The translations under genes were made by a program, and so were the position numbers. From UHGV virus genome UHGV-0076931: a stretch of 35,663 nt of DNA, one strand, 5' to 3'. The notes beneath the pieces were generated by a model. That model saw only the letters and a list, made by a program, of their open reading frames with translations. It ran no database searches and was not told the origin of the DNA. The DNA is from a virus. The number at the start of each line of letters is the position of its first letter. Position 1 is the stretch's first letter. Of this stretch, positions 6,687-30,497 are shown piece after piece.

Positions 6687-9480
6687 TATCCGGGTCGCTT
6701 TCAGCGCCGTTGACAGGCTGACCCGACCTGCCGAAAACGCCCGCCGCCTGATGGGGCAGTTTGGTGACTCCATCCAGCGAACGCAGGGGGCGATCAAAAA
6801 TCTCGAGCGTCAGGCGCGTTCATTTGAGCGCGCCCGCGACGCTGTCAGTAAAGCGGATGCGGGTATCGTGAAAGCGCGACGCCAGCTTAACGCCCTTAAT
6901 CAGTTACAACGCACGGGTACAGTGCTCAGCGAAAAACAACAAAAGCTGATGCAGCAGTTAAGCACCCGGCTTGAACGCCTGAATGAATCGCGCACACGGG
7001 AAATTCAGAAAATGCGGGAGCTTGGCGGAGAGCTGAAACGCCACGGCATTTCCCTGACAGGCAGCGATAACACCATCCAGCAGGCCATCAGACGCACCGA
7101 ACAGTACAACAACCAGCTTGAACGCGAACGGCAGGCGCTTGCGCGTGTAACGCGGGCGCGTGAGCGGTATTCGCGCGCGCAGGAAACCGCGGGAAAACTG
7201 AAAACAGGTGGTGCGCTGGCAATTGGTGCGGCAGCGGCTGGCGGCTATGCTACCGGGCGTTTTTTGCAGCCTGCGATCGGGTTCGGGAAAGAGATGTCCC
7301 GCGTTCAGGCACTGACGCGAATCGACCAGAACAGCCCGCAGTTTAAGGCGCTGCGTGAGCAGGCGTTAAAACTTGGCTCTGAAACGCAGTTCACCGCAGG
7401 CGATGCCGCCAGTGGGCAGGCATTTCTTGCAATGGCTGGCTTCACACCGCAGGCCATTCAGGCTGCGCTTCCCGGAGTGCTGAGCATGGCAACGGCTGGC
7501 GGTATGGATCTCGGCGAGACGGCTGATATTGGCTCAAATATCCTGACGCAGTTCGGCCTTTCTGCTGACCAGATGGACCGGGTCGGTGACACACTCACCG
7601 CAGCGTTTACCCGTACCAACACTGACCTTCGCGCACTGGGCGAAACCATGAAATATGCAGGTCCGGTGGCGGGCAAGCTGGGAATATCGCTGGAGCAGGC
7701 CGCAGCGATGGCGGGCGTGCTGGCGAATATGGGTATCAGGGGAAGTGATGCCGGGACGGCAATGCGTGCCAGCCTGGCTCGTCTGGCATCACCGCCAAAG
7801 GCGGCAGCAGAGGCGCTGAAAGAGCTGGGCGTGTCTGTCTCGGATGCCGGGGGCAAAATGCGCCCGATGGAGGATGTGCTGGCCGACCTTTATAAAGCCA
7901 CCCGCAAATACGGGGAAGTTGACCGGGTATCGTTCTTTAAGGACATTGCCGGAGAAGAGGCTTTCACATCGTTTATGGCGCTCGTTGATGCAGCGGGTGA
8001 CGGTTCCTTACCCAAACTGAGAAAAGAACTTGAAGGCGCGCGCGGTGAGGCTGAACGCACAGCAAAGGTTATGGCCAACAACCTTGACGGCGATCTGAAA
8101 TCACTCGGCAGTGCATGGGAAGGGTTGCGCATCCGCATTGCAGATCTGATTGACGGTCCGCTGCGTTCTGTCACGCAGTGGCTCACGCGAGTGGTCTCAA
8201 AGGTGACGGCGCTGGCGCAGGCCCATCCCGCACTGACGCGCCAGCTACTGATAGCAGGCGGTGCGTTGCTGGCAATGACTGCAACGGTTGGCTCGTTGTC
8301 GCTGGCTATTGGTGTGCTTGCTGGCCCGCTGGCAAAACTGCGTCTTGGTTTTTCTCTCCTGGCCGGATCAATGAATGTCGTCAGGGTGCTGCCAGCACTA
8401 TGGGGAATGGTAACAGGTTCCATCTCGTTGCTGGGTGGCGCTATCGGGGCGCTGTTCAGTCCGGTTGGTCTTATCGTGGCTGCGCTTGCCGGAGCTGCCG
8501 TTCTTATCTGGAAATACTGGGAACCCATCAAGGCGTTTTATGCCGGGGTGTTCAGCGGGATTATGGAACGGCTGGCTCCGTTGCGCGAAACCTTTGAACG
8601 GTTTGGTCCTGTTTTTGATGTCGTGCGCGATGGGATTATTCAGCTCTTTAACTGGTTTAAATCGCTGCTGTCACCGATGGAGTCCAGCAAGGAAACGCTG
8701 GATAAATGTACCAGTGCTGGCGAGATATTCGGTAACGTTCTTGGTGGCGCGCTACAGCTTGTTCTGACGCCTGCAAAAATGCTGCTGGATACGCTGGCGT
8801 GGATACTTGAAAAACTCGGTGTGCTTCCGGATGAAGCGGAAAGGGCGCGCAAGAAAATCGAAGACGCACAGCGTGCGGCCATTCTTCAGGACAAGGTTGC
8901 CTTGCTTCAGGGGGACCTGGCGAAAATCAATCCGCCGAAGCCTGTGGAAAATGGCAATGGCACCGGAGGTGATAACCCCAAAGACAATAAACCGCTCACA
9001 GACAGCAATACCGGTACGCTGCGCAGACTCAGCAAAATTGCTGATAACACTGGTAAGCTGGTTGAGGAGACGAAAAAACGCATTGGCCCCGGCGATATTG
9101 TCTTTAAAAACCTGCCCCGAGCACTTGCTGTTCGTGGGGAGTGGCAGGAGCGGAAGATTGCGCAGGTCAGTAAGCCTGCCCCCGCAATTAATATCACACC
9201 CGTGGTCCCGGCTCCGCTGCCTCCGGCGCTGGTCCCTGTTGTTGCGGCCAGCTCCCGCCCGGTGGCGGAGGCTATACGATCTCCAGTGGCATCAGTTCCT
9301 GTAACTTCCCGTAACCGCGAGCCTGTTGCCTCCGGATTTGGTGGTGAAATTCATGTTCATCTGCATAACGTTGTTACGCAGAATCCCCGCGAACTGGCGA
9401 AACTGGTCGGTGAAATGGTCAGGGCAGAAATGGAACGGCGCGCCCGTGCCGGGCGTGGCAGTTTTTACGATAAAGATTGA
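6637..9480 (+). CDS. T: Tail tape measure protein
   Basis: 947 aa, coiled-coil N-terminal part, Ala/Gly-rich hydrophobic middle; position after E/E'; exact start uncertain (GTG 6637 or ATG 6664/6673). Confidence 0.9.
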   Translation: MSGRHFAAGMQTMKTLDIRVAFSAVDRLTRPAENARRLMGQFGDSIQRTQGAIKNLERQARSFERARDAVSKADAGIVKARRQLNALNQLQRTGTVLSEKQQKLMQQLSTRLERLNESRTREIQKMRELGGELKRHGISLTGSDNTIQQAIRRTEQYNNQLERERQALARVTRARERYSRAQETAGKLKTGGALAIGAAAAGGYATGRFLQPAIGFGKEMSRVQALTRIDQNSPQFKALREQALKLGSETQFTAGDAASGQAFLAMAGFTPQAIQAALPGVLSMATAGGMDLGETADIGSNILTQFGLSADQMDRVGDTLTAAFTRTNTDLRALGETMKYAGPVAGKLGISLEQAAAMAGVLANMGIRGSDAGTAMRASLARLASPPKAAAEALKELGVSVSDAGGKMRPMEDVLADLYKATRKYGEVDRVSFFKDIAGEEAFTSFMALVDAAGDGSLPKLRKELEGARGEAERTAKVMANNLDGDLKSLGSAWEGLRIRIADLIDGPLRSVTQWLTRVVSKVTALAQAHPALTRQLLIAGGALLAMTATVGSLSLAIGVLAGPLAKLRLGFSLLAGSMNVVRVLPALWGMVTGSISLLGGAIGALFSPVGLIVAALAGAAVLIWKYWEPIKAFYAGVFSGIMERLAPLRETFERFGPVFDVVRDGIIQLFNWFKSLLSPMESSKETLDKCTSAGEIFGNVLGGALQLVLTPAKMLLDTLAWILEKLGVLPDEAERARKKIEDAQRAAILQDKVALLQGDLAKINPPKPVENGNGTGGDNPKDNKPLTDSNTGTLRRLSKIADNTGKLVEETKKRIGPGDIVFKNLPRALAVRGEWQERKIAQVSKPAPAINITPVVPAPLPPALVPVVAASSRPVAEAIRSPVASVPVTSRNREPVASGFGGEIHVHLHNVVTQNPRELAKLVGEMVRAEMERRARAGRGSFYDKD

Positions 9481-9486
9481 GGAGTC

Positions 9487-9981
9487 ATGGCCATGATGAT
9501 GATCTACGGCATGTTTGTTTTTGAGCTGCGCACGCTGCCGCATCAGCAGTTACAGCAAAACAAAAGCTGGCGGCATGTGAAAAATGAACGCGTTAACCGT
9601 TCAGCAAGCTGGCAGTATATCGGTGCAGGTGATGATCGCATCGTTCTTTCTGGTGTGCTTTATCCTGAAATTACAGGTGGCGAAGTGTCGCTGTCGCTGC
9701 TGACCACGCAGGCGTATACAGGACGACCCTGGCCTTTGATTGATGGCGTCGGGCAGATTTACGGTATGTATGTCCTGACCGGAACGAATACGACCCGTTC
9801 CGAGTTTGATCGCTACGGTAAGGCGAAAAAGATAGAATTTTCACTGACCCTTGAACGCTGTGATGAGGATTTGCGGGAGCGCCTGCAATCCTCATCGTTC
9901 AGCGATATGCTGTCCGGCTTCAAAGATAAGGTGACATCATCCCTTAACAGCGCGGCAAGTTCAGTAAAAGGGTTGTTCTGA
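9487..9981 (+). CDS. U: Tail protein U
   Basis: 164 aa directly after T; size and position match P2 gpU. Confidence 0.8.
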   Translation: MAMMMIYGMFVFELRTLPHQQLQQNKSWRHVKNERVNRSASWQYIGAGDDRIVLSGVLYPEITGGEVSLSLLTTQAYTGRPWPLIDGVGQIYGMYVLTGTNTTRSEFDRYGKAKKIEFSLTLERCDEDLRERLQSSSFSDMLSGFKDKVTSSLNSAASSVKGLF

Positions 9982-9993
9982 TTTAACACAAAA

Positions 9994-10020
9994 ACCGCTA
10001 ATGGTCAGATTAGCGGTTTT
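9994..10020. terminator. Bidirectional intrinsic terminator between convergent U and H
   Basis: Stem accgctaat / attagcggt with 6-nt loop, flanked by an A-run upstream and T-run downstream. Confidence 0.7.
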
Positions 10021-10171
10021 CTTTTTCCTTAGTCTTCTCAATTGTTTCTTCAGTCTGTATATCGCCTACAGGGTGATAACGATAAATCGTCGATATACTG
10101 ATACCGTAAATTATTGCCAGTTGTTTTCTGTCATGACCGTTTTTAATAAGCCTTGCTATTTGAATGTTCAC
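10010..10171 (-). pseudogene. Remnant of a serine DNA invertase (Hin/Gin/Cin/Pin-type), C-terminal HTH only
   Basis: Hand translation ...IARLIKNGHDRKQLAIIYGISISTIYRYHPV... resembles the C-terminal HTH of Hin-family invertases; no room upstream for a catalytic domain (H stop at 10217). Confidence 0.5.
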
Positions 10172-10216
10172 CCAAGGAATGCCTCCCTTAAGAAAGGGGG
10201 CAACCTTACCTACAAA

Positions 10217-12814
10217 TCAGTATTTATAATAACGTCCAGGCAGCACAGGAGAGTTAACATTCCAGAACCCCTGCGGATCGCATGCCAGTATCATCCAGGC
10301 TGTATTACAGGAGGACGGCCACGGTGGCATATCATCATTATCGGGGTAGTCACACGAATCAATATAACCGTAGCGTGTGCGCAGTGGTGCCAGCCTCGCC
10401 AGAATATCCATCGCGGTGGTATCATCTCCCAGTCTGCGGGCCAGCAATGCCACGCCTGCACTGCCCTCCACCCAGACTCCACGCTGTTTATTCGGGTAGC
10501 CATATTCCGGATGATAAGGCGTGTACCCTGTCGCATCGTGCGTGGCGTACCAGAGTCTGCCCAGGTAAGTAAAACACCGCCGGGCTTTTTCCATATCTAT
10601 ATTGGCCACAAACAGCCCTCCCCAGCTCGCGCAGTCCAGCGGTGAGGCCTTGTCCACCCCGGTAGTCCGCATCCCGGCATAAAATCGTCCTTCGTCCTCC
10701 ACCCACAGTTTTTCCATAATGGCATCCGCCAGGGCTTTCGCTTTTTCAGCATAGCCGGTGAAGCCCAACCGTCCCATCAGATCAAACAAAAACCACAGGT
10801 CGAACTGATGTTCTGACGTGCACCAGTCTGCGTCAAAATCCGGATAAAACACACCATTCAGATACTGTCCGCTACCGGATGTATACAAACCAGAGCGAAC
10901 ATCACTGCCATCTGTGACCCTGAACATTTCAATCCATTCTGCGCACTGCATCAGTTTATCCCGGGCAACAACGGCCATTTCACCGTCCGGATATTTCAGC
11001 AGATAATACGCCAGCGCATACGCCACCCACGCTGCGTTTCCCGTCCGGTAATACTGCGATGATGTTTGTGCTGACATACGGTTCACAAAAAAAGGCACGC
11101 TTCCCTCACTGCCTCCGCTGCCCACAATCGCACACAACCCGCGAACAAAACGCTCAACCTGACTGTGCCCCTGCGCCATCAGGGCAATGGCCGACACAGC
11201 CTGGTCGTAAGTGTACGTACGGTCTTTCATCACCCTTACCGTTTCGTCTCCGGCATCCGATGGCACCCGGTAAGAGCGGATACACAGCGGGTCTTCCCAG
11301 ACAGTTACCAGACCGTTATTTGATGTACGATACAGTTTAAAAGACTTGGCCCCCGGCCAGCTTCTGGCGAAACTGAACGTGCCGTCACTCTCTAATACTA
11401 CAGAGGAAAACTGATATTCCAGAGTTGTGCTGGCACACAGCGCAATGGTGTAGCTCTGCGGATCACCGATACTGCACTGACCTGTGACCGGACCGGTATA
11501 GTCCGTTGTCAGCTCTTCATTTACCGTCAGCGTAACGGATTTGTTGTACACATCAGGGGCATTCAGCGATAAAAGTTCCGCTGTGCAGGTTTCCGCCAGT
11601 GTGTAAAAATTTTCCACCCGGCTGTTGCGTTCGCAGGTTGTGATCTGCGAGTGAAATTTATCAATTATTTCCGTTAATCGAAGGTAATCTAGAACATCCT
11701 CAGCACTGGTCTTACTAATAATTTCACGTCCAACACTTGTTAATGCAGTTAATGCGGCACGATTTGCCCCTGTAAAATAAGGGAGTTTATCTGCTGATGT
11801 AGCAAGCTCCGCCAGCGCCGTCAGGGTGGCATCCTTCGGTTGCTTACCCGCAAGCGCGTCAATCACGGTGGTTGCAAAATTAGGGTCATTGCCCAGCGCC
11901 GCAGCCAGTTCGTTCAGCGTGTTCAGTGCATCAGGTGACGAATCTACAAGTGCGGCAATCGCGGCCATAACGAAAGCCGTGCTTGCGATCTGGGCATTAT
12001 TAGTCCCCTGTGGCGCTGTTGGTGTTGTTGGCGTTCCGGTCAGTGCCGGGCTGTTTAATGGTGCTTTCTTGTTCGTTTCATCCATTACCACCTTGACAGC
12101 TTTTGGTGTCGCTGCCAGCGTTTCAGACGTGCTGTTCGTGGCGCTACTGAGCTGAACAATCCCTTTTTGTGTAGTGGTGGCGTTCTGGGCGGTATATTTC
12201 CCGTTAGCCAGGTCATATGCAGCCTTAACCGCTTTCGGTGTTGCGGCCAGTGTTTCTGATTCACTGTTAATTGCACTGCTTAACTGAGTAAAACCTTTTA
12301 CGGTCAGCGAGGCGTCCGGGTGACGTCGTGACTGTTCGTGCTCTGATATTTTATCATCCACATATTTGCGGGTTGCCAGAACCACAGACGGGTCGATTTT
12401 CAGCGTGATGGCTTCGGTGTTCGTGACAACCAGAATCATTCGGATAGTCTGGGTGCGTCCACTGCCTTCCTGCAACTGCGGTTTGTACGTTTCCGGGCAG
12501 TTTGCCACCGCAATGAGTACACCTTCATCATCATAAAGACCAATCTCACGGATCCAGAATCCTCCCTCGTTTTCAGGGATGATTTGCTCCGCAATAATCT
12601 GGCTCTGATTGTTAGGGTCAACACTCAGAAGATTCAGCGGTGCAATGCGTTTCTGGTTAATCAGTTTTGTTTGTGCAGGGTCTGGTGTTGGTAACACACC
12701 ATTTGCATCACCAACGGCCATTTGCGTCAGATTCAGCTTACTGCCGAGCATCGTCGCGTTAGCCAGTCGTGCCGCGCCCTGATTAGTCAGAATGGCGTAG
12801 TATTTCACTGTCAT
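10217..12814 (-). CDS. H: Tail fibre protein H, chimeric: P2 gpH-type N-terminus plus distinct C-terminal domain
   Basis: N-terminal ~370 aa match P2 gpH including the duplicated LSSA(I/T)NS(E/T)SETLAATPKAVK repeats; remaining ~490 aa unrelated, rich in W/Y/D/E. Confidence 0.9.
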   Translation of the reverse strand: MTVKYYAILTNQGAARLANATMLGSKLNLTQMAVGDANGVLPTPDPAQTKLINQKRIAPLNLLSVDPNNQSQIIAEQIIPENEGGFWIREIGLYDDEGVLIAVANCPETYKPQLQEGSGRTQTIRMILVVTNTEAITLKIDPSVVLATRKYVDDKISEHEQSRRHPDASLTVKGFTQLSSAINSESETLAATPKAVKAAYDLANGKYTAQNATTTQKGIVQLSSATNSTSETLAATPKAVKVVMDETNKKAPLNSPALTGTPTTPTAPQGTNNAQIASTAFVMAAIAALVDSSPDALNTLNELAAALGNDPNFATTVIDALAGKQPKDATLTALAELATSADKLPYFTGANRAALTALTSVGREIISKTSAEDVLDYLRLTEIIDKFHSQITTCERNSRVENFYTLAETCTAELLSLNAPDVYNKSVTLTVNEELTTDYTGPVTGQCSIGDPQSYTIALCASTTLEYQFSSVVLESDGTFSFARSWPGAKSFKLYRTSNNGLVTVWEDPLCIRSYRVPSDAGDETVRVMKDRTYTYDQAVSAIALMAQGHSQVERFVRGLCAIVGSGGSEGSVPFFVNRMSAQTSSQYYRTGNAAWVAYALAYYLLKYPDGEMAVVARDKLMQCAEWIEMFRVTDGSDVRSGLYTSGSGQYLNGVFYPDFDADWCTSEHQFDLWFLFDLMGRLGFTGYAEKAKALADAIMEKLWVEDEGRFYAGMRTTGVDKASPLDCASWGGLFVANIDMEKARRCFTYLGRLWYATHDATGYTPYHPEYGYPNKQRGVWVEGSAGVALLARRLGDDTTAMDILARLAPLRTRYGYIDSCDYPDNDDMPPWPSSCNTAWMILACDPQGFWNVNSPVLPGRYYKY

Positions 12815-21313: not shown

Positions 21314-23065
21314 ATGATTCAGGACGCTTTTGTGCGCCAGCGTGCGCGACAACTTTACTGGCAGGGTTATCCGCCCGCAGAAATATCACGTCTGATGGGA
21401 ATAAACCCGAACACGATTTATGCGTGGAAAAAACGCGACCAGTGGGATGAAACGCCACCCGTGCAGCGTGTCACGCAGTCCATCGATGCGCGTCTCATCC
21501 AGCTTACTGAAAAACAGAATAAAACAGGCGGTGACTTCAAGGAAATAGACCTGCTGACCCGGCAGCTTAAAAAGCTGCATGATGGCCAGCCGGATGTGAC
21601 GGCCACAGGAAAGAAAGGCCGGGCGAAAAAACTCAAAAATCATTTCACGCCGGAACAGATTGCCGCACTGCGGGAAAAAATCATCAGCAGGCTGGAGTGG
21701 CATCAGCGGGGCTGGTTTGACTCCCTGACCCTTTGCAGGGAAGCCGGGATACGTAACAGGATGATCCTGAAATCCCGACAGATTGGGGCGACCTGGTATT
21801 TTGCACAGGAAGCACTGCTGATGGCGCTGCGTGACGATGTGGTGCAACCTTACCAGCGTAACCAGATTTTTTTGTCTGCGTCGCGTCGTCAGGCGTTCCA
21901 GTTTAAAAGCATTATTCAGAAGGCCGCGGCTGAAGTTGATGTGGAGCTGAAAGGGGGCGATAAAATCATCCTCTCCAACGGCGCAGAGCTGCATTTTCTC
22001 GGCACTTCTGCTGCGTCGGCGCAGTCCTATACGGGCAATTTTTATTTTGATGAATTTTTCTGGGTCAGTCGCTTTGCTGAACTGCGCAAGGTGGCTGGCG
22101 CTATGGCAACCCTCAGCGGACTGCGGCGCACCTACTTCTCCACGCCATCCACCGAAACGCACGAGGCATACGCCTACTGGAACGGCGACCGCTGGAACGA
22201 GAAAAAGGCCACGCATAAACGCCAGCGTTTTTCTGTGGACTGGAAAACGCTGCATAACGGGCTTATCTGCCCTGACCGGACGTGGCGGCAAATTGTCACG
22301 CTGGAAGATGTGGTTAATCACGGCTGGAAACACACCGATATCGACGAAATTCGTGATGAAAACACCGAAGACGAGTTCCTCAATCTCTATATGTGTGAGT
22401 TTGTCCGCGAAGGGGAATCGGCATTTAACCTGAATATCCTGATTGGCTGCGGTGTTGACGGATACGACGACTGGAAAGACTGGAAACCTTTTGCTCCCCG
22501 CCCGATGGGGAATCGTCCGGTATGGATTGGGTATGACGCAAACGGCAGCAGTGGCAACGGCGATAGCGGCGCTGTGTCCGTGGTGGTTCCTCCGTCTGTT
22601 CCTGGTGGCCGTTTTCGAACGGTGGAGACGCGACGCGTTCAGGGGCTGGAGTTTGAAGAACAGGCCAGAGTCATTGAAGAGTTCACGTGTCGCTACAACG
22701 TGGAACACATCGGCATTGATGTGACGGGCGGGAACGGGGAGGCTGTTTATCAGATAGTGAAACGGTTTTTCCCTGCCGCCATTCCGTACACCTTCACGCT
22801 GTCATCAAAACGGTCGCTGGTACTGAAAATGCTGCAAATAATGCGTGCCGGGCGGTGGGAATACGATCGCGCCGAACGCGAGCTGGTCGCGGCCTTTAAC
22901 GCCGTGCGTAAGGTGAAAACACCGGGCGGCTTTATCACTTACGAAACGGACCGTGCGAGGGGGATCAGCCACGGCGACCTTGCGTGGGCAACCATGCTTG
23001 CTGTCATTAACGAACCAATTGGCGGCGAAGGAGAAAACGAGCGTTTCACGGTTATGGAGTTCTGA
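21314..23065 (+). CDS. P: Terminase large (ATPase) subunit P
   Basis: 583 aa; GGGGGAG SD; size and position match P2 gpP. Confidence 0.9.
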   Translation: MIQDAFVRQRARQLYWQGYPPAEISRLMGINPNTIYAWKKRDQWDETPPVQRVTQSIDARLIQLTEKQNKTGGDFKEIDLLTRQLKKLHDGQPDVTATGKKGRAKKLKNHFTPEQIAALREKIISRLEWHQRGWFDSLTLCREAGIRNRMILKSRQIGATWYFAQEALLMALRDDVVQPYQRNQIFLSASRRQAFQFKSIIQKAAAEVDVELKGGDKIILSNGAELHFLGTSAASAQSYTGNFYFDEFFWVSRFAELRKVAGAMATLSGLRRTYFSTPSTETHEAYAYWNGDRWNEKKATHKRQRFSVDWKTLHNGLICPDRTWRQIVTLEDVVNHGWKHTDIDEIRDENTEDEFLNLYMCEFVREGESAFNLNILIGCGVDGYDDWKDWKPFAPRPMGNRPVWIGYDANGSSGNGDSGAVSVVVPPSVPGGRFRTVETRRVQGLEFEEQARVIEEFTCRYNVEHIGIDVTGGNGEAVYQIVKRFFPAAIPYTFTLSSKRSLVLKMLQIMRAGRWEYDRAERELVAAFNAVRKVKTPGGFITYETDRARGISHGDLAWATMLAVINEPIGGEGENERFTVMEF

Positions 23066-24111
23066 TGAGCAGAAAAAATAAAAAAGTGCGCATGAGTTCA
23101 CGCATTGATCTCGCTGATGCGCTCAGGAAAGAATCGTCGCTCAGTGCATTCACATTTGATGGTCCTTATCGCCTGACCGGGCATGATCTGCTGGATAATA
23201 TGTACTGTGCTGATAACGGGCGGTGGTATGAAACCCCGGTGGACTGGTACGGTCTGGCAAGAGCTGCCCGGCAAACGTCCTGGCATCAGTCTGCGCTTTA
23301 CTTTAAGCGCAATGTATTGCTCGGTTGCTATATTCCGCACCCGCTGCTTTCCCGGCAGGATTTCTCGGCGCTGGCGCTGGACTGGTTTATGTTCGGTAAC
23401 GCATTCCTTGAGCTTCGAAACAATATGCTCGGCGAACCGCTTAAATTACGGCACGCTCTGGCGAAATACATGCGACGCGGAAGCGATCTTGAATCATGGT
23501 GGTATGTGCAGGATGGCAAGGACGCGTTCCAGTTTCGCCCTGGCAAAGTGTGCCACCTGATGAATCCGGATATTAACCAGGAAATCTACGGCATGCCGGA
23601 ATATCTTGGCGCATTACTCTCGGCCAGCCTGTCTCATTCGGCGGACATGTTCAGAAAACTGTATTACGACAACGGATCCCACGCCGGGTGCATCATCTAC
23701 ATCGGTGCAGCGCAGGTAAACCGTGAAAGCATGGACTCCCTGAAAGAAACGCTACAGGGTGCACGTGGTGGTGGTGCGTTTAAAAACGTGCTCATTCATG
23801 CGCCCAACGGGGGCAAAGAAGGTGTGCAAATTTTGCCGTTCCAGCAGATCACCGCAAAGGATGAGTTCATGAATGTTAAGTCGGCATCCCGTGATGATGT
23901 GCTGGCTGCGCACCGCGTTCCGCCGCAACTGATGGGGGCGATGCCGGGCGAAAAAAGTGCGTTTGGTGATGTGGAGAAGGCCGCGCGGGTTTACGCAATT
24001 AACGAGCTGATGCCTGTCATGGAGGCCATGAAGCACATCAATGACTGGCTTGGCGAAGAGGTGATCCGTTTTAATTCTTATGCTCTTCTTGATGAAAAAA
24101 CAGCCCCGTGA
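23065..24111 (+). CDS. Q: Portal protein Q
   Basis: 348 aa; start overlaps the P stop (ATGA); size and position match P2 gpQ. Confidence 0.9.
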   Translation: MSRKNKKVRMSSRIDLADALRKESSLSAFTFDGPYRLTGHDLLDNMYCADNGRWYETPVDWYGLARAARQTSWHQSALYFKRNVLLGCYIPHPLLSRQDFSALALDWFMFGNAFLELRNNMLGEPLKLRHALAKYMRRGSDLESWWYVQDGKDAFQFRPGKVCHLMNPDINQEIYGMPEYLGALLSASLSHSADMFRKLYYDNGSHAGCIIYIGAAQVNRESMDSLKETLQGARGGGAFKNVLIHAPNGGKEGVQILPFQQITAKDEFMNVKSASRDDVLAAHRVPPQLMGAMPGEKSAFGDVEKAARVYAINELMPVMEAMKHINDWLGEEVIRFNSYALLDEKTAP

Positions 24112-24127
24112 TGGGGCTGTCCTTTTT
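24101..24127. terminator. Bidirectional intrinsic terminator between convergent Q and the 174-aa gene
   Basis: Stem cagcccc / ggggctg with 5-nt loop, flanked by aaaaaa upstream and ttttt downstream; includes the Q stop codon. Confidence 0.7.
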
Positions 24128-24650
24128 ACCAGAGTTGAACCATTTTCTGGGTGCCGTCAGGCTTGAGATTATCAATTTCAGAGAGAACGTAATATTGAAT
24201 GGCTTCACAAACGGTGGTGTATGGTGAATTACCTTCTTTAAGTGGCACGATATTATTATTAACGCGAACCTGTATTTCATCGTTATACATTGCGATCGAA
24301 AGAGGAGTATGCACGAACGCGACTTCGCCAGGTGTGTCGTCAACCACTGTCTCAATGCTGAAAATCAGTTTTCGCTCATCATTGCCGCCCCTTGCTTTGG
24401 GGGTAGCGGCAGGAATCTGAGATAAAGGCATTCTGCGAAACCCTTCAGTTGTTTCCAGTCCGCATGAAACGTAATGCTGGCGATTACCGTCGCTATCCGT
24501 CCATGTCTGTGATGGCAGCTCCAGAGAGATTTCATAAGCATCAACAATTCCCTGGGCAAGGTGTACAAGCGGGGTCAGATCTTCATTGCGGCGAAAACTT
24601 TCCTTTACCTGCTCTCGTTTTTCTCGTAACTGCTTGTAATTAATGACCAT
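24126..24650 (-). CDS. Hypothetical protein (174 aa), accessory gene next to portal
   Basis: Lower GC than flanking phage genes; start placed at ATG 24650 with GGAGG SD (ORF extends to 24689); no recognisable motifs. Confidence 0.6.
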   Translation of the reverse strand: MVINYKQLREKREQVKESFRRNEDLTPLVHLAQGIVDAYEISLELPSQTWTDSDGNRQHYVSCGLETTEGFRRMPLSQIPAATPKARGGNDERKLIFSIETVVDDTPGEVAFVHTPLSIAMYNDEIQVRVNNNIVPLKEGNSPYTTVCEAIQYYVLSEIDNLKPDGTQKMVQLW

Positions 24651-25149
24651 AAAACAGCCTCCATTGATTTCTTTGCTCGTATTTTGCACTTATGAAGTGT
24701 GGTCGGCAAGGTGCCGCATCACTGACGCGCTTCGCTTGTCTGCTGCTTCGCCGAGGCATAAAAAATTTATGCCCCGACTCTCCAGCTCCTGTATCAATCA
24801 GATAATTTCACGACGTCTTCCGACTTATCGCTATCATCGACAGTCAGGCTCTTACGCAATCCCGCCGCGCTGACTGCATGTTCTCGCCGCCTCAGTGCGA
24901 TTTTAATGGCCTTACCTTTCATCCCATCAAATCAGAACCCCTTACGTCTTTTTCACGTTCAGTGTGAGCGATACAGCCATTCTGTTGTGTCGCTGCGACA
25001 TCGTTCAGGGAATGCTATTTACCCCCTGAAACGCGGGCTGTTCCCCCGTCACCTGCGCGCAGAAAAAGCGCGTTTTTTTGTGCACGCACGGATCCTTGAC
25101 GGATCCAACCGCCATGCGGGCCGGAAGGGTAAAAAGTCGTTCAAAAAAA

Positions 25150-25176
25150 TTGTGCAAATTTGTGCACTATTGTGCA
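25150..25176. repeat. Three direct TTGTGCA repeats at exact 10-bp phasing
   Basis: ttgtgca at 25150, 25160 and 25170, immediately beside the terminator hairpin at 25187-25207. Confidence 0.5.
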
Positions 25177-25186
25177 TTGAAATAAA

Positions 25187-25207
25187 CGCCCTGAAAGAGG
25201 GCGTTTT
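25187..25207 (-). terminator. Intrinsic terminator ending the minus-strand accessory operon
   Basis: Stem cgccct / agggcg with loop gaaag; T-rich flank on both strands. Confidence 0.6.
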
Positions 25208-25216
25208 GGCTCATTT

Positions 25217-25477
25217 CTATAGCTTTGATGCAGGTTGGGCTAGATGTAATGGTTGGACATACCAGCCTTTTGATAACCAACTCTCTGCAACCTCTTTACT
25301 CCTTGTTATTGCTGGTATTCCGATGCCGTTATTTACATGCATCCATGCTACTGGCTCTGCTTCCAGCGATGCCAGAGCAATTTCATAAGCACGGCGTTCA
25401 ATATTGTCTCTCACGTCTAGGCTGCCTATGCGCTCTTTGATTTCTTTAATCATTTCTTTGTCGGTTAAAGTGGTCAT
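25217..25477 (-). CDS. Hypothetical protein (86 aa)
   Basis: ORF in tight operon arrangement; no recognisable motifs. Confidence 0.5.
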   Translation of the reverse strand: MTTLTDKEMIKEIKERIGSLDVRDNIERRAYEIALASLEAEPVAWMHVNNGIGIPAITRSKEVAESWLSKGWYVQPLHLAQPASKL

Positions 25478-25487
25478 GGGTCAGTTC

Positions 25488-25613
25488 TCAACCAATAGTT
25501 ATGTGAATGAAAGAAAGCAGCCAAAGAATGGACTCAATAACTGCCCAACCAATAACGGCGCAAATGACACCGAAAACAACGAAAAAACCAGTACCAGGCA
25601 AATTATTGAACAT
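25488..25613 (-). CDS. Small hydrophobic membrane peptide (41 aa)
   Basis: Hand translation MFNNLPGTGFFVVFGVICAVIGWAVIESILWLLSFIHITIG; AAGGAG SD; ATG 2 nt after the upstream stop; not in the ORF track. Confidence 0.4.
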   Translation of the reverse strand: MFNNLPGTGFFVVFGVICAVIGWAVIESILWLLSFIHITIG

Positions 25614-25615
25614 CC

Positions 25616-25930
25616 TCACTCTCCTTTGATGCCAGTGTTTACAACCTGACAAGCCTCTTTGAGCACCCAGTCAATAGCATCTTTCCATGCTCCGGTTTCG
25701 GCTGGCGGATTCTCACGCTTTACCAGTTCATAGAAACGTACTGCTCTAACCAGTCCATCTGACGGTTTTGCCTGTAGTGCAGCCTGAGCTATGCGGTATG
25801 CCTGGAGTATACGGGCGTCGTTGATATCCATTCCGAACGGAATTTCTGATGATTGTGATTCTGCATCTTCAAGCCTGGCAATTTCTTTACGTAAAAAGTA
25901 TTTCAACTCTTGTTTTTGTTTTCTGTTCAT
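25616..25930 (-). CDS. Hypothetical protein (104 aa)
   Basis: ORF with 4-nt overlap to the upstream gene; no recognisable motifs. Confidence 0.55.
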
Positions 25931-26259
25931 GCGTTTTTTTCCTTTTTGTCTGTCACTTCTTTCCTGATAATTTCATTGCACAAATCCACGCACTCATTGC
26001 AGATGTAAACAGACGGTCCGGCAATCACCTTTGTGACTTCGTACTGGGATTTATTGCAGAAACTGCAATAAACCGTCTTCTCGCCTGAAGTCCATGTTTT
26101 GCTGGTTTCGCCAGACATCAGTTGTTTGAGGTCTTTTTCACGACGAAGAACTATCTGGCCACATTCAGCTATTTTTTGGATGTTGACATTTTCTTCTTTC
26201 GCCAGCGCTTCCATCCGCTCAATCAGTCGCTGCGCTTTTTCTCTGTCAATGTGTTGCAT
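25927..26259 (-). CDS. Small protein with ClpX-type C4 zinc-finger domain (110 aa)
   Basis: C-terminal half [34 protein letters not shown] closely resembles the N-terminal zinc-binding domain of ClpX; no AAA+ domain; AAGGGGGA SD. Confidence 0.7.
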
Positions 26260-26322: not shown

Positions 26323-26634
26323 TTATTCGGGAAATAACGCCCGGATATTTCCGGCCATCTGACTGGTTATCTGTGCGGTTGATACTGGCTGTGACGCGGG
26401 GCGTTCTGTCCTGGTTTGTGGCACTGATAACGCCTCATCATCAGCCCATGCAGCCAGTCGGTAAGCCTCTGCCGGATTCATTTTCAGTAGTGCCAGCCCG
26501 GCCAGAAAAGCCACGCGTTGGCCGCTTTTGCGGGCTTCTGGTGTAAGGCTGTCCAGCCAGGCGCATGCTTCGCCTTCGTTCTTGACGGCGGCGGGCTTCA
26601 GATAGAAACTTATCCGTCTGGTTGGTGTTGTCAT
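26323..26634 (-). CDS. parR: ParR-like partition adaptor / repressor
   Basis: Start at ATG 26634 with AAGGAG SD, 4 nt after the parM stop; RISFYLKP...LAGLALL...NIRALFPE pattern as I recall it from R1 ParR. Confidence 0.65.
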   Translation of the reverse strand: MTTPTRRISFYLKPAAVKNEGEACAWLDSLTPEARKSGQRVAFLAGLALLKMNPAEAYRLAAWADDEALSVPQTRTERPASQPVSTAQITSQMAGNIRALFPE

Positions 26635-26638
26635 TGGT

Positions 26639-27598
26639 TTACTCCTTGTCCATTGCGTACAGCCCATTAACCAGAGCAAACTGTGGCACCCCGTCCGCGA
26701 TGAAAGTCGCATTAACTCCGCAGGCTTCGCGGATAGCGGGTGCCACAATCTCCGCCCCTCCACCGACAACCATCGCCCGCCCGTAACCCGAAAAACCCGC
26801 CAGCGCGCGGATCACGCGTTGTTTCAGTGTTTCTTCCTTTTCACGAATAACAGCCATCAGGCTGTCGTAATGCGCGTCATTGTGGATGTGCTGGCGCAGC
26901 CAGGCTTCATCATGGCGATGTTCGATAATGGTATTGGCGATATGGTGACTGGTGCGCATACCGTTAGTGGCCATCACCGACAGTACGGCATCGGCCATCA
27001 GGGAAACGCCTACGTGTGGATCGCAAAACACCTGGCTGATACCTGCCAGTTGCCCCTGAACCTTTGCCACATCCAGCGTGGTTCCGCCCAAATCCACAAT
27101 CAGCAGGGATTCAAACGGACTCATGTCAGCCAGTGCTTTAAAGCCAGCCGGAATGGATTCAGGCATAACCCGCACGTTACGGATAGTGAATGCTTCGCCG
27201 TTCTGGTACTCCACCGGGCGCATAACGTTCGCTTTTTTGCGGTTGATGTTGGCCATGTCCGGCTGTGCGTTTGTGTCGAAATACTCGCTCAGTGGCAGGG
27301 TGACAACCACATCCACCTCCTGTGGCGTGATGCCTGATTTGACCAGCGCGTGATGAATGGCAATTACATTCACATCGCTGTACTGGTATTGCGTGTCGGT
27401 CGTCTGGACAAAGCGATCGCTGACCGGATCAAAACCATAGCGCACGCCATCAAGCATGTAGTTTGCGGGCTGCGTGCCACCGAACGGCGCAGACCATTCC
27501 GACTTGAAGCTGTTCGGGCTGATGGCGTTGCGGCGTTCTCCGTTCTCAGTCCATGCCAGCTTGATGTTGGTGGAGCCGTCATCGATACAAATTTTCAT
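26639..27598 (-). CDS. parM: ParM (StbA) actin-like plasmid segregation ATPase
   Basis: Collinear match to R1 ParM blocks: IDDGSTNIKL, ISPNSFK, YSDVNVIAIHHAL, VMPESIPAGF, DLGGTTLD, GGGAE, LVNGLY. Confidence 0.88.
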   Translation of the reverse strand: MKICIDDGSTNIKLAWTENGERRNAISPNSFKSEWSAPFGGTQPANYMLDGVRYGFDPVSDRFVQTTDTQYQYSDVNVIAIHHALVKSGITPQEVDVVVTLPLSEYFDTNAQPDMANINRKKANVMRPVEYQNGEAFTIRNVRVMPESIPAGFKALADMSPFESLLIVDLGGTTLDVAKVQGQLAGISQVFCDPHVGVSLMADAVLSVMATNGMRTSHHIANTIIEHRHDEAWLRQHIHNDAHYDSLMAVIREKEETLKQRVIRALAGFSGYGRAMVVGGGAEIVAPAIREACGVNATFIADGVPQFALVNGLYAMDKE

Positions 27599-27628: not shown

Positions 27629-27738
27629 GTTTACGGGATTCTGAAATCCCGTTTTTGCCTGTTTTATGCGCGCTTCATATATCGCGGCGCGTTTTTTGCT
27701 CATTTACGGGATTTGTGAATCCCGTTTCTGTCTGTTTT
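27629..27738. repeat. parC-like site: two copies of a ~36-bp element each containing palindrome ACGGGATT-N4-AATCCCGT
   Basis: Copies at 27629-27665 and 27701-27738, directly upstream of parM; the second lies in the 3' end of the A reading frame. Confidence 0.5.
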
Positions 27739-30497
27739 TTGTTTCCACTGGTCAGGCCACCCCGCAGCAGGTCTGCTTTGCGGCGGGCGCGTTCAGTGGT
27801 TTCACTGATTCTCTGTGCGTGCTCTGCGTCGCGGATGGCGCGCAGCATGTCAGAAAGCACGGTAACGGGTGTTTTCATGGTGTTCTGGTCTTGCTGAAGT
27901 GTGGATGCCAGGCGTGCGGCGGCTTCGGGGTCTGATGCCCCCAGCTGTTCCAGATAGCTGGCGACCGGGTTATGGCGGATCTCCGTGCTGCTTACGCCGT
28001 GGTTACGGCTCAGGCGCTGCCAGAGCTGCGTGATCCGGCTGTCCGGGCGGGTATCCGGTTTGCGTACAATTTCAAATCCCTGCGGTGCAATGATGCTGCC
28101 GTCAACGTACAGACTGCCGCCCCGTAACAGGTGCTGCATCTGCTGTTCACCAATATGCAGGCCGAGAGATTCAGCAGACTCCCGCCATTCTTTAGCGAGT
28201 AATTCGTGGTTATCAGGCAAAGGCCGCAGCTGTTTGCGGCTCTGTGTCCAGCTCTGCATTTCATCACTGCTGTTTTTTGCCTGTTTGTCACGAAGCGAAC
28301 GCATCAGCGCCCGGCGTTCGTGCCGTTTCAGTGAGCGCATCCATTCGTTCACTTCAACGCCGTCAGGGAGCTGCGGCCACGGTGCTGGCCGTTCTTCCGG
28401 CTGTTCTGTCCCGTTGTTGTCCGTTTCCTGTACACGGGGACAGTTATTGCCACGAGTCCAAGGGGCGGCAGGGCCGCCCTGAAGGTCAAAACCATTTTCG
28501 TGGGCGTTGTCTTCTGGTTCTGGTTTACGTCTTACCAATTTCCAGTTATCCGGATGCGTGCACACACGGGAGGATTCCCCGATGAGTGGTGACCAGATCC
28601 CGTAAATCTGTACGCTCTGTTCGCCGTAATCGTTCAGCTCATCTGCGAGGTCGTAGGCGGTGCGAATCAGGTAGTCCTTGCGTGGAACAAGCACGCCACC
28701 CTGTTTTTCAATGTAGGTGGCAAAACACCCGGCATCGGCGGCAGCGAGTACCGCATCCATTGCATCATCTTTCAGCCGTTGCGGGCCTTCCGGATTGCGT
28801 GCCATCTGGCTGGCAAGGCGGCGCAGTTCACGCCACACCTGACGGGAGGGGATGCCAAAGAACTGGAACTGACGGACCCGGTGAAGGCGCGCCCAGCCGA
28901 TGGCGCGCTCCACGCTCTCGGCCATTGATTTTCCGGTTTCGTGGTCAACGCGTGGCTTGCCCGTTTTCGGGTCGATGCCATCCACGGCGCGGCTGTCCAG
29001 GTTCTTTCCGATGTAGGTGGCGATGTAGCTGGTTGGTGTGCCTTTTGAGCCGTCGACATACTCCGCCTTAAAACGCGGAGTTATGTCATCGCCCAGCTCG
29101 TGGCGGTCCTCCTGAATGGCAATATCGCAGACGTGGGACACGATGGTTTCAATCTCGTCCGGATGTGCAAAGACCATCATATGCCAGTGCACAGTGCCGT
29201 CATGGTGAGGCTCCACCGTGCGGATGCCATACCAGCGCAGGCCGTCGCGGTTCAGTTTTTTGCGGACCGCCGCAAAAAACGTGTTAACCAGGTAATCGCT
29301 GGAGTCGCGCATGGTGGCCCCGTTCCATTTGGGGTTCGGATGACCGTTCTCCGTTGTTGCGTGGTATTTTGACGGGCAGGTGACGGTCAGAAACACCGCT
29401 CTGTCGCCACGGGCTTCGGCCAGAAGTTCCAGTCCCTTCATGGTGGCCATCATTTCTGCCTTACGGTGAACCGGGTTACTTACTCCCGCGTAATACACCG
29501 TCTCGAGATCAATCGTGAACCCGTCTTCATTTTCCAGCATGAAACTTTTCAGGAAATCGCGTGTTTTCTCGCGCTGTGCGCGAAACTCGCTTAACGCGTC
29601 CTGGCTCAGATAGGGCGATGTTTTTCTGGAAACCAGACAGGCGGCGCGGAGTTGTTCTTCTCTCCACTCGCAACGTAACAGCCACAGTTTGCGTTTCCAC
29701 CATTCCGCACAGGTCAGGCGAAGGATTGCGCCCGGCAGCAGCTCCGTGTCCGGTTCGTTCCTCCGGTCTTTATCTGTTGTCAGTGCGTCATAATGTGGAG
29801 GCATGATGTGCAGGTGTAACGCCATGCGGGCCAGCATCTGATACGCCTTCAGCGTTACATCCATGGTCAGTTCGCCATCGGTCGCGCCAAAGCCATCGCA
29901 GAGTTTTTCGAAGGTGCTGCTGAACATCGCCGCCGTCATGGTGGCCAGCGTCTGTATCTGGTGTTTGTTGAGCTGCGGCAGGTAAAGCAAATCGTCCAGG
30001 CGTTCGCGTCCGGCAAGGGAGCGATAACCCGGTGTCAGCCAGCGTCCGTCAGTGCGATCCAGACGTTCGAATATTTTGCGTAGGGTTCCGCGTGCATAGC
30101 GTTCCGCCTGCCAGCTCTTTTTGCCTTTCCGGCGATCGGCTTCCTGTTTTTTGCGCAGGAAGGAGAGGTGGCGAATAAGCGGATCGCGCAGATAGGACGG
30201 CAGCAGGCGCAGCGAGGCCATGGCTTCATCCACCGCGTCGCGTGCCTGTTTTCTGGCGTCTCCTGCCAGTGTGATGGTTTTGTCCTGTTTTTCCTGTGCG
30301 TCCAGGCTTTTATTAATCAGGTTGCCCAGCGGCGTGGCGGAGAACGCCGCATCAGCCATTTCCTGGCGGCGCTCGTTCTCTACCCGGTAGGCATCCAGCC
30401 AGGAGGAAAGCGCGGATCCAGGAGCGGGGATCCCCGTTCCTTCACGCCCCACTGCGTGGCGCGGTTGTTGCCAGTCCCTGATGTACTCTGCCGTCAT
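27675..30497 (-). CDS. A: Replication initiation endonuclease A (rolling-circle, HUH type)
   Basis: 940 aa; HUH motif in HWHMMVF and paired tyrosines in YIATYIGK as in P2 gpA; longer than P2 A at the C-terminus. Confidence 0.9.
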   Translation of the reverse strand: MTAEYIRDWQQPRHAVGREGTGIPAPGSALSSWLDAYRVENERRQEMADAAFSATPLGNLINKSLDAQEKQDKTITLAGDARKQARDAVDEAMASLRLLPSYLRDPLIRHLSFLRKKQEADRRKGKKSWQAERYARGTLRKIFERLDRTDGRWLTPGYRSLAGRERLDDLLYLPQLNKHQIQTLATMTAAMFSSTFEKLCDGFGATDGELTMDVTLKAYQMLARMALHLHIMPPHYDALTTDKDRRNEPDTELLPGAILRLTCAEWWKRKLWLLRCEWREEQLRAACLVSRKTSPYLSQDALSEFRAQREKTRDFLKSFMLENEDGFTIDLETVYYAGVSNPVHRKAEMMATMKGLELLAEARGDRAVFLTVTCPSKYHATTENGHPNPKWNGATMRDSSDYLVNTFFAAVRKKLNRDGLRWYGIRTVEPHHDGTVHWHMMVFAHPDEIETIVSHVCDIAIQEDRHELGDDITPRFKAEYVDGSKGTPTSYIATYIGKNLDSRAVDGIDPKTGKPRVDHETGKSMAESVERAIGWARLHRVRQFQFFGIPSRQVWRELRRLASQMARNPEGPQRLKDDAMDAVLAAADAGCFATYIEKQGGVLVPRKDYLIRTAYDLADELNDYGEQSVQIYGIWSPLIGESSRVCTHPDNWKLVRRKPEPEDNAHENGFDLQGGPAAPWTRGNNCPRVQETDNNGTEQPEERPAPWPQLPDGVEVNEWMRSLKRHERRALMRSLRDKQAKNSSDEMQSWTQSRKQLRPLPDNHELLAKEWRESAESLGLHIGEQQMQHLLRGGSLYVDGSIIAPQGFEIVRKPDTRPDSRITQLWQRLSRNHGVSSTEIRHNPVASYLEQLGASDPEAAARLASTLQQDQNTMKTPVTVLSDMLRAIRDAEHAQRISETTERARRKADLLRGGLTSGNKKQTETGFTNPVNEQKTRRDI

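Follow-up and report, generated by a model that had tools for sequence, protein, structure and literature searches.

What does a small gene without recognisable motifs do beside the packaging genes of a P2-family prophage? The question is raised by ORF174, a 174-aa open reading frame at positions 24126..24650 (minus strand) of the window, that is, of the whole 35,663-nt stretch of UHGV virus genome UHGV-0076931 analysed here. A preliminary description had placed this gene in the slot where P2 carries old/tin, a known P2 accessory hotspot, with no obvious room left for cos next to Q, and had proposed it as a candidate defence or anti-defence gene. Such a role is suggested by the position of the gene.

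From its sequence, the window is classified as a P88-like (genus Xuanwuvirus, Peduoviridae) P2-family prophage of E. coli, oriented opposite to the standard P2 map. The related phages P88, 520873, PhiR44_2, vB_EcoM-569R5 and 705R2 are 91-95% identical to the region. ORF174 is convergent with the portal gene Q (23065-24111, plus strand; Pfam Phage_portal, with portal annotation in related phages), which follows the terminase gene P (21314-23065, plus strand; a 583-aa ORF with terminase annotated at the equivalent position in related phages). On the other side lies the replication gene A (27675-30497, minus strand), a 940-aa ORF annotated as a replication endonuclease in related phages. Elsewhere in the window the gene order is unlike that of P2: the gpD homologue (3139-4380, minus strand) lies on the strand opposite to, and divergent from, the FI-FII-E-T-U tail operon (4406-9981, plus strand), and this operon is inverted relative to the O-to-H late genes.

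The ORF174 gene, its expression signals and its cassette

ORF174 begins with an ATG at 24650 and ends with a stop codon at 24126-24128. Every homologue in the alignment begins with MVINY or MTVNY, which argues that the 174-aa ATG start is the right one, and not a 187-aa GTG start. Comparison with the PhiR44_2 allele gave a dN/dS of 0.078, indicating purifying selection; in comparisons with the Salmonella and Trabulsiella alleles and with the second E. coli allele, pN is 0.25-0.36 and synonymous substitution has reached saturation. The lower GC reported in the preliminary description was confirmed, with a GC of 0.455 and a GC3 of 0.434 for ORF174, versus 0.523 and 0.585 for Q and a GC of 0.541 for P. 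ORF174 is a genuine, conserved, self-contained protein-coding accessory gene, or moron. The chance that it is a non-functional or mis-called ORF is vanishingly small: the lack of an annotated function and the many spurious ORFs overlapping the region would favour that reading, but its dN/dS is low, its length and motifs are kept in alleles at 46-63% identity, a profile search gave 89 representatives at 50% identity, and AlphaFold2 (AF2) returns a confident fold. The spurious-ORF reading is excluded.

A Shine-Dalgarno sequence, GGAGG, can be read at 24658..24662 (minus strand), 7 nt before the ATG, and its GGAG is kept in all four of the divergent alleles aligned. Further upstream, TTGCCG and CAAAAT separated by a 17-nt spacer (24681..24709, minus strand) may form a sigma-70 promoter of weak consensus. 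This candidate agrees with the consensus at 8 of 12 positions, which is below the threshold of the consensus scanner, so it was not called. The Salmonella allele (63% identical) carries TTGTCT-17-CAAAAT upstream at the same spacing, in flanks that have otherwise diverged. No Ogr-type TGT-N12-ACA late-promoter element was read in the sequence upstream of ORF174. At the other end of the gene, a gap of 14 bp separates its stop codon from that of Q (24109-24111), and the bidirectional intrinsic terminator that the two genes had been said to share is indeed found there (24100..24120, both strands), overlapping the Q stop codon. Its hairpin has a fold energy of -16.9 kcal/mol (z -4.5) on the plus strand and of -20.6 kcal/mol (z -6.6), followed by U6, on the minus strand, which is that of ORF174; a U-tract lies 3' of the hairpin on both strands. 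The Salmonella allele and the second E. coli allele have comparable hairpins where the ORF meets Q.

The gene belongs to a cassette of 639 bp (24075..24713, both strands), delimited by BLAST boundaries and by the Q tails, that is absent from P88 and phage 520873, in which 26 bp stand in its place. The cassette comprises a new Q 3' end, the terminator, ORF174 and 63 bp of upstream sequence. Its left boundary lies inside Q, the last 12 codons of which are replaced and differ in nucleotides and partly in protein (NSYALLDEKTAP in the window versus NPYALLDTQPTS in P88 and 520873); the new tail resembles the Salmonella type NTYALLEEK. Its right boundary directly adjoins what is left of a P88-type Q stop (CATCACTGA, about 24717-24725). 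In the alignment with P88 and 520873, this relic and a P88-type hairpin together span 24717..24776, the hairpin itself (GGGGCATAAA/TTTATGCCCC) lying at 24752-24776 with a fold energy of -14.1 kcal/mol. No target-site duplication or transposon-like repeats were found flanking the cassette. The two boundaries, one inside Q and the other after the Q-stop relic, thus indicate that ORF174 moved together with the Q 3' end, the terminator and the 63 bp upstream, by recombination in the Q 3' end and in the cos-proximal spacer.

The cos site and the cos-Q interval

The view that no obvious room is left for cos next to Q does not hold. Upstream of ORF174 lie 566 bp of non-coding DNA (24651-25216), which contain a cos-like block. 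A candidate cohesive-end 19-mer, GGTGACGGGGGAACAGCCC, is located at 25035..25053 (minus strand), 384 nt upstream of the ORF174 ATG, and is identical at 13 of 19 positions to the P2 cohesive end GGCGAGGCGGGGAAAGCAC. It is part of a conserved block of ~170 bp (25008..25175, minus strand) composed of three TTGTGCA repeats, a GC hairpin that precedes the 19-mer, the 19-mer itself and ~45 nt beyond. The repeats, at 25150-25176, have a 10-bp period and stand ~100 nt upstream of the 19-mer. The P2 cohesive end lies 167 nt past the Q stop, with old and tin on the other (gene-A) side, and three TGCAT repeats stand ~105 nt before cos, which is the layout observed in the window (3x TGCAY).

The identical 19-mer is found in P88, 520873, PhiR44_2 and Salmonella P2-like prophages, which have a portal of only 73% identity. 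Scanning IMG/VR for exact matches recovered it in at least 120 contigs, and 119 loci were read. The portal gene is convergent with the 19-mer at every locus with a detectable portal (~108 of the 119; 68-99% identical to the Q of the window), and the distance from the 19-mer to the portal end is 190-330 nt when the interval is empty (~95 IMG/VR loci). Among 40 ORF174 loci that include the 19-mer, 37 have it 383-385 nt from the ATG; the distance is 342 nt in two Salmonella-type loci and 461 nt in a single locus whose match is truncated. In an alignment of 28 distinct divergent loci, the conservation footprint starts abruptly at -122 from the 19-mer and fades after +45. None of the deposited records begins at GGTGACGGGGGAACAGCCC, and a literature search found no paper containing the 19-mer sequence. 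Repeats, hairpin, 19-mer and footprint together point to a cos at about 25008-25175, a placement that would hold for Xuanwuvirus-type phages. It puts ORF174 on the Q side of this putative site, and old/tin of P2 are on the A side.

Within 24794-25388 of the window, a 160-aa ORF at 24906-25388 overlaps the conserved cos block, as do small CDSs annotated as hypothetical proteins in PhiR44_2 and P88 (3795-4215 of locus L001 and 3181-3472 of locus L002); all of these are probably spurious gene calls. An Rfam scan of 23900-25700 gave a sub-threshold gyrA match as its sole result, which was taken as chance (21.5 bits, below the gathering score of 45). A terminator-like hairpin at 25184..25206 (minus strand; -13.4 kcal/mol, z -3.8, followed by UUUAUUU) closes the early/accessory operon before cos.

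Beyond this hairpin, the segment 25217-27598 extends from cos towards gene A. It encodes a partition module, ParM (26639-27598) and ParR (26323-26769), recognised by Pfam (StbA / Plasmid_stab_B), a ClpX-type zinc-finger protein (25927-26259, domain match) and two small Ead/Ea22-like ORFs (25616-25930 and 25217-25477). It is this segment that truly corresponds to the old/tin slot of P2. The assignment of ORF174 to that slot is correct in so far as this accessory, horizontally exchanged gene lies within gpA-gpQ, and wrong as to the side, old/tin being situated between A and cos and ORF174 between cos and Q. GC is low at 25200-26250 within the segment. Plasmid-like maintenance is not evident despite the presence of ParM/ParR, because all 403 E. 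coli copies of the linked ORF174 are chromosomal.

The gpA-gpQ interval is an experimentally supported P2 defence hotspot (Rousset et al. 2022, PMC9122126), and Table S5 of that study lists the ORF174 protein, WP_000236495, 167 times as "hypothetical" in gpA-gpQ arrangements (PMC9122126). A search of literature and supplements by accession and phrog id found WP_000236495/WP_001407222 in that arrangement table only, and the literature search found no paper testing ORF174.

The two sides of cos differ in their variability. The 2 kb on the gene-A side fall into 22 sequence clusters among 35 ORF174-bearing loci (IMG/VR L018-L058), so that ORF174 is independent of the neighbouring cargo. In EC958, the gene-A-side cargo consists of a 280-aa hypothetical protein and, encoded on the opposite strand, a DUF4760 protein. 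The TGCAC repeats of cos mark a sharp limit to the variation on this side. The cos-Q interval contains either nothing or a representative of one single family, phrog_5091, to which ORF174 belongs (~108 phage contigs and ~1,100 E. coli genomes with the locus, spans being read in a sample). A joined-flank query recovered the locus in 1,097 of 5,426 complete E. coli genomes. In a spread sample of 60 rows, spans were 747 bp (empty) or 1361 bp (filled), except for one divergent locus of 1320 bp and three partial matches. In IMG/VR, 11 loci have a 926-nt interval that holds ORF174 and about 95 are empty, including two with a frameshifted Q. The hypervariable hotspot thus lies on the gene-A side of cos only, and the cos-Q interval cannot be regarded as a general hotspot; the hotspot invoked in the preliminary description is real for gpA-gpQ as a whole and does not extend to the interval in which ORF174 resides.

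The cos-Q interval has received the family more than once. One IMG/VR locus (L092, interval of 895 nt) carries at 11332-11835 (minus strand) a 167-aa, very divergent family member, detected with the family profile (hmmsearch, 6e-25). Its insertion point lies across the P88-type hairpin, 80 bp from that of the window; the orientation is the same, and this hairpin serves as its shared terminator. Another E. coli P2-like prophage (L014) carries a 56%-identical allele at the same junction as the window. The interval thus received two divergent family members by independent insertions, 80 bp apart and in the same orientation.

The phrog_5091 family and its predicted structure

ORF174 is present in PhiR44_2, 569R5 and 705R2 and absent from P88, 520873 and others, all of them otherwise near-identical phages. 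It occurs in 397 of the 5,426 complete E. coli genomes (~7%), always in the chromosome, and its carriers include ST131 EC958, O111, O26 and ETEC strains. Across 50,697 phage records it was found in four P88-like phages only, and in temperate elements only. Two tblastn searches of isolated phages with distant members matched only the same four P88-like phages; of the IMG/VR scans for distant members, one gave a single locus and another nothing. Close relatives are confined to E. coli, Salmonella and Trabulsiella. A chromosomal copy in Salmonella enterica strain s1 (CP191473.1) is 97% identical, and the same allele is therefore present in both E. coli and Salmonella.

More distant members occupy other positions. 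In Trabulsiella guamensis, a 46%-identical homologue immediately follows gpA and precedes the toxin-antitoxin genes HicB, Phd and Fic (8001-10674 of locus L006). The cos-like 19-mer GGCGACGGGGGGACAGCGC comes only after the HicB/Phd/Fic genes, and the homologue there is therefore on the old/tin side of cos. Distant members lie between the LysC/Rz and terminase genes in an Edwardsiella lambdoid prophage, between a methyltransferase and HNH-TerS-TerL in Lelliottia prophages, and between the antiterminator Q and the holin in two metagenomic lambdoid contigs. These are classic moron slots at the late-operon edges of temperate phages. The comparison across related prophages that the preliminary description had called for thus yielded presence/absence variation, spans of 747 versus 1361 bp and distant members in moron slots, and it establishes phrog_5091 as a family of temperate-phage morons in Enterobacterales.

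We performed homology searches with the single protein and with a profile of 48 sequences. ORF174 matches phrog_5091 (PHROGs v4, no functional annotation) with an E-value of 6.8e-67, residues 1-168 aligning with positions 1-164 of the 164-position profile, and the same family is matched by 48 of 48 aligned relatives. Pfam, NCBIfam, PADLOC and PDB sequence searches revealed no annotated relative, and no Pfam family was assigned to any of the 48 aligned relatives; the statement that ORF174 has no recognisable motifs agrees with the lack of matches in Pfam, NCBIfam and PADLOC. In PADLOC v2, including the PDC, HEC and PD- candidates, ORF174 matched 0 families and the 48 relatives gave only two single-member matches, with E-values of about 0.005-0.009. 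Matches to designed helical repeats in the PDB (E down to 2.6e-7) were rejected as sums of weak repeats with individual E-values of ~2. A profile search of 1.84 billion representatives returned 89 proteins of ~155-175 aa, all single-domain. There are no fusion proteins in the family, the longer matches being mis-called starts or repeat noise.

Conserved positions of the family are Y39, S42, L43, L45, W50, Y60, V61, F97, T101 and K152, with a frequent TVxDD motif; no catalytic signature can be recognised among them. Family members are mildly acidic, with a median pI of about 5.1 and a net charge of about -5.5, and lack transmembrane segments; no signal peptide, transmembrane segment, toxin motif or enzyme motif was found in ORF174. 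AlphaFold2 gave a pLDDT of 81.7 with 11 sequences and of 90.4 (pTM 0.80) with 48, with the same topology of two N-terminal helices, an antiparallel sheet and a C-terminal helix. Foldseek searches of the PDB and BFVD with the model gave no match at E < 0.05. The remote homology and structure prediction recommended at the outset thus led to phrog_5091 only, together with a confident model that has no significant structural match. The protein is predicted to be a compact, mildly acidic, cytoplasmic alpha+beta domain.

Proposed function and alternatives

Which role may such a protein play? We tentatively favour, at somewhat less than an even chance, that ORF174 is a lysogen-expressed, non-enzymatic, protein-binding moron for competition between phages. 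The gene would be transcribed towards Q in the lysogen from its own weak sigma-70 promoter, and the transcript would end at the terminator common to the late P-Q operon. Its product would be a non-catalytic binder of another protein, one that most likely belongs to a competing phage or satellite, and the result would be exclusion of, or competition with, other phages. Several observations are consistent with this role: full-length conservation with a dN/dS of 0.078, presence/absence variation, low GC and GC3, an own terminator and a conserved promoter-like element, independence of the neighbouring cargo, and restriction to temperate elements. The moron slots of distant members, the two independent cos-Q insertions, the AF2 scores (pLDDT 90.4, pTM 0.80) and the experimentally supported gpA-gpQ defence hotspot (PMC9122126) point in the same direction. 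Against it, there is no homology to PADLOC models, Tin, Tai or Ati, the candidate promoter is weak (8/12) and was not called by the scanner, and the lambdoid relatives are co-oriented with the late operon, which suggests lytic-phase rather than lysogenic expression. Furthermore, the cos-Q interval is not hypervariable, so the argument from hotspot to defence is weaker here than on the gene-A side.

The proposed role is reminiscent of known systems. P2 Tin is a single protein without known enzymatic domain that blocks a competitor. Like ORF174, with its candidate promoter, old/tin are accessory, self-transcribed genes in the cos-proximal gpA-gpQ region of a P2-family phage. However, Tin and ORF174 have no profile similarity (hhalign probability 0.3%), and P2 Old is an OLD-family nuclease of about 580 aa with ABC-ATPase and Toprim domains, neither of which was found in the 174-aa ORF174 protein by Pfam or PADLOC. 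The Tai/Ati proteins of phi80 and PICIs are, like ORF174, small uncharacterised proteins of temperate phages that fall outside DefenseFinder and PADLOC and are placed just upstream of the packaging module; Tai, for tail-assembly inhibition, acts by protein binding (PMC11364771). TaiEcA (phi80 orf63) and AtiEcA (orf64) each gave an hhalign probability of 0.1% with ORF174, and ORF174 differs from the Tai/Ati system in being a single gene without partner. The resemblance to Tin and Tai would thus be one of proposed role and of placement only, not of ancestry. With classical morons such as lambda bor, located between Rz and cos, ORF174 shares the promoter-gene-terminator layout (its promoter being a candidate), the deviating GC, the presence/absence among close relatives and the cos-adjacent module junction. 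Its presence or absence in near-identical phages, its deviating GC and its own terminator are the marks of a moron. Bor differs in being a lipoprotein with a serum-resistance phenotype, ORF174 being predicted to be cytoplasmic and without known phenotype.

It is less likely that ORF174 is an anti-defence protein, that is, a small inhibitor that neutralises an immune protein of the host by binding to it. In that case it could be made late in infection, and its targets might include sensors of late proteins such as portal or terminase; it might also travel into the next host. The distant homologues lie in, and are co-oriented with, late operons, either first after the antiterminator Q or just before the terminase genes, and ORF174 itself adjoins the portal and terminase genes; the small size and acidity of the protein would also suit such an inhibitor, and DarA, Acr and immunity-like proteins appear as weak structural neighbours. 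The scores of these neighbours are in the noise range, however, and the sequence showed no similarity to any known anti-defence family. In addition, the gene is absent from virulent phages, with only four isolated phages carrying it, and its orientation in P2-like phages is convergent with the late operon, with no Ogr-type element upstream.

A narrower version of the favoured competition role is decidedly unlikely as stated: phrog_5091 would be a new single-gene, non-enzymatic anti-phage/anti-satellite family beside the packaging site, and its members would bind the terminase, portal or capsid of a competitor, be it another phage or a P4-like satellite. Binding to such packaging or morphogenesis proteins of competitors would explain why the family is the sole cargo of the cos-Q interval and was captured there at least twice.

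Lysogenic conversion is an improbable alternative. ORF174 would then act on host physiology (stress, colonisation or virulence), with no relation to phage conflict. The moron architecture would fit, as would the frequency of the gene in the clinical lineages ST131 EC958, O111, O26 and ETEC, and the classic morons of equivalent lambdoid slots, bor and stx, act on the host or the environment. Yet the protein has none of the export, membrane, toxin or enzyme features sought, and its distribution tracks phage lineage, not pathotype.

Quite improbable, finally, is a packaging or satellite factor that modulates terminase-cos recognition or protects the helper from P4-like satellites or cos-PICIs. 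Such a role would explain the recurrence of the family next to cos and packaging genes: phrog_5091 is the sole family in the cos-Q interval, with two independent insertions, and other members adjoin cos/terminase in lambdoid and HK97-like prophages and occur on the gene-A side of cos in Trabulsiella. The cos region is moreover common to P4 and P2 (PMC9122126). Some members, however, lie between the antiterminator Q and the holin, away from cos, and ORF174 is without a DNA-binding motif. Most phages with the same cos are without ORF174, and the gene is therefore dispensable for packaging. Recombination-prone module junctions near cos could explain the placement without invoking function.

The interest of ORF174 lies in its position inside a locus that has yielded many new defence systems, while the gene is invisible to PADLOC. 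The confident model without significant PDB/BFVD neighbour and the family-specific cos-adjacent slot make it a well-defined candidate for phage or satellite challenge; if no phenotype were observed, ORF174 would be one more orphan moron.

Past gpD, two genes in the leftmost part of the window (50-841 and 1896-2966, minus strand) encode a type II-like N6/N4 DNA methyltransferase (PADLOC MTase_II, 3.7e-64) and a 356-aa PIN_12-domain protein. Located near the prophage end, they may represent further accessory or defence-related cargo.
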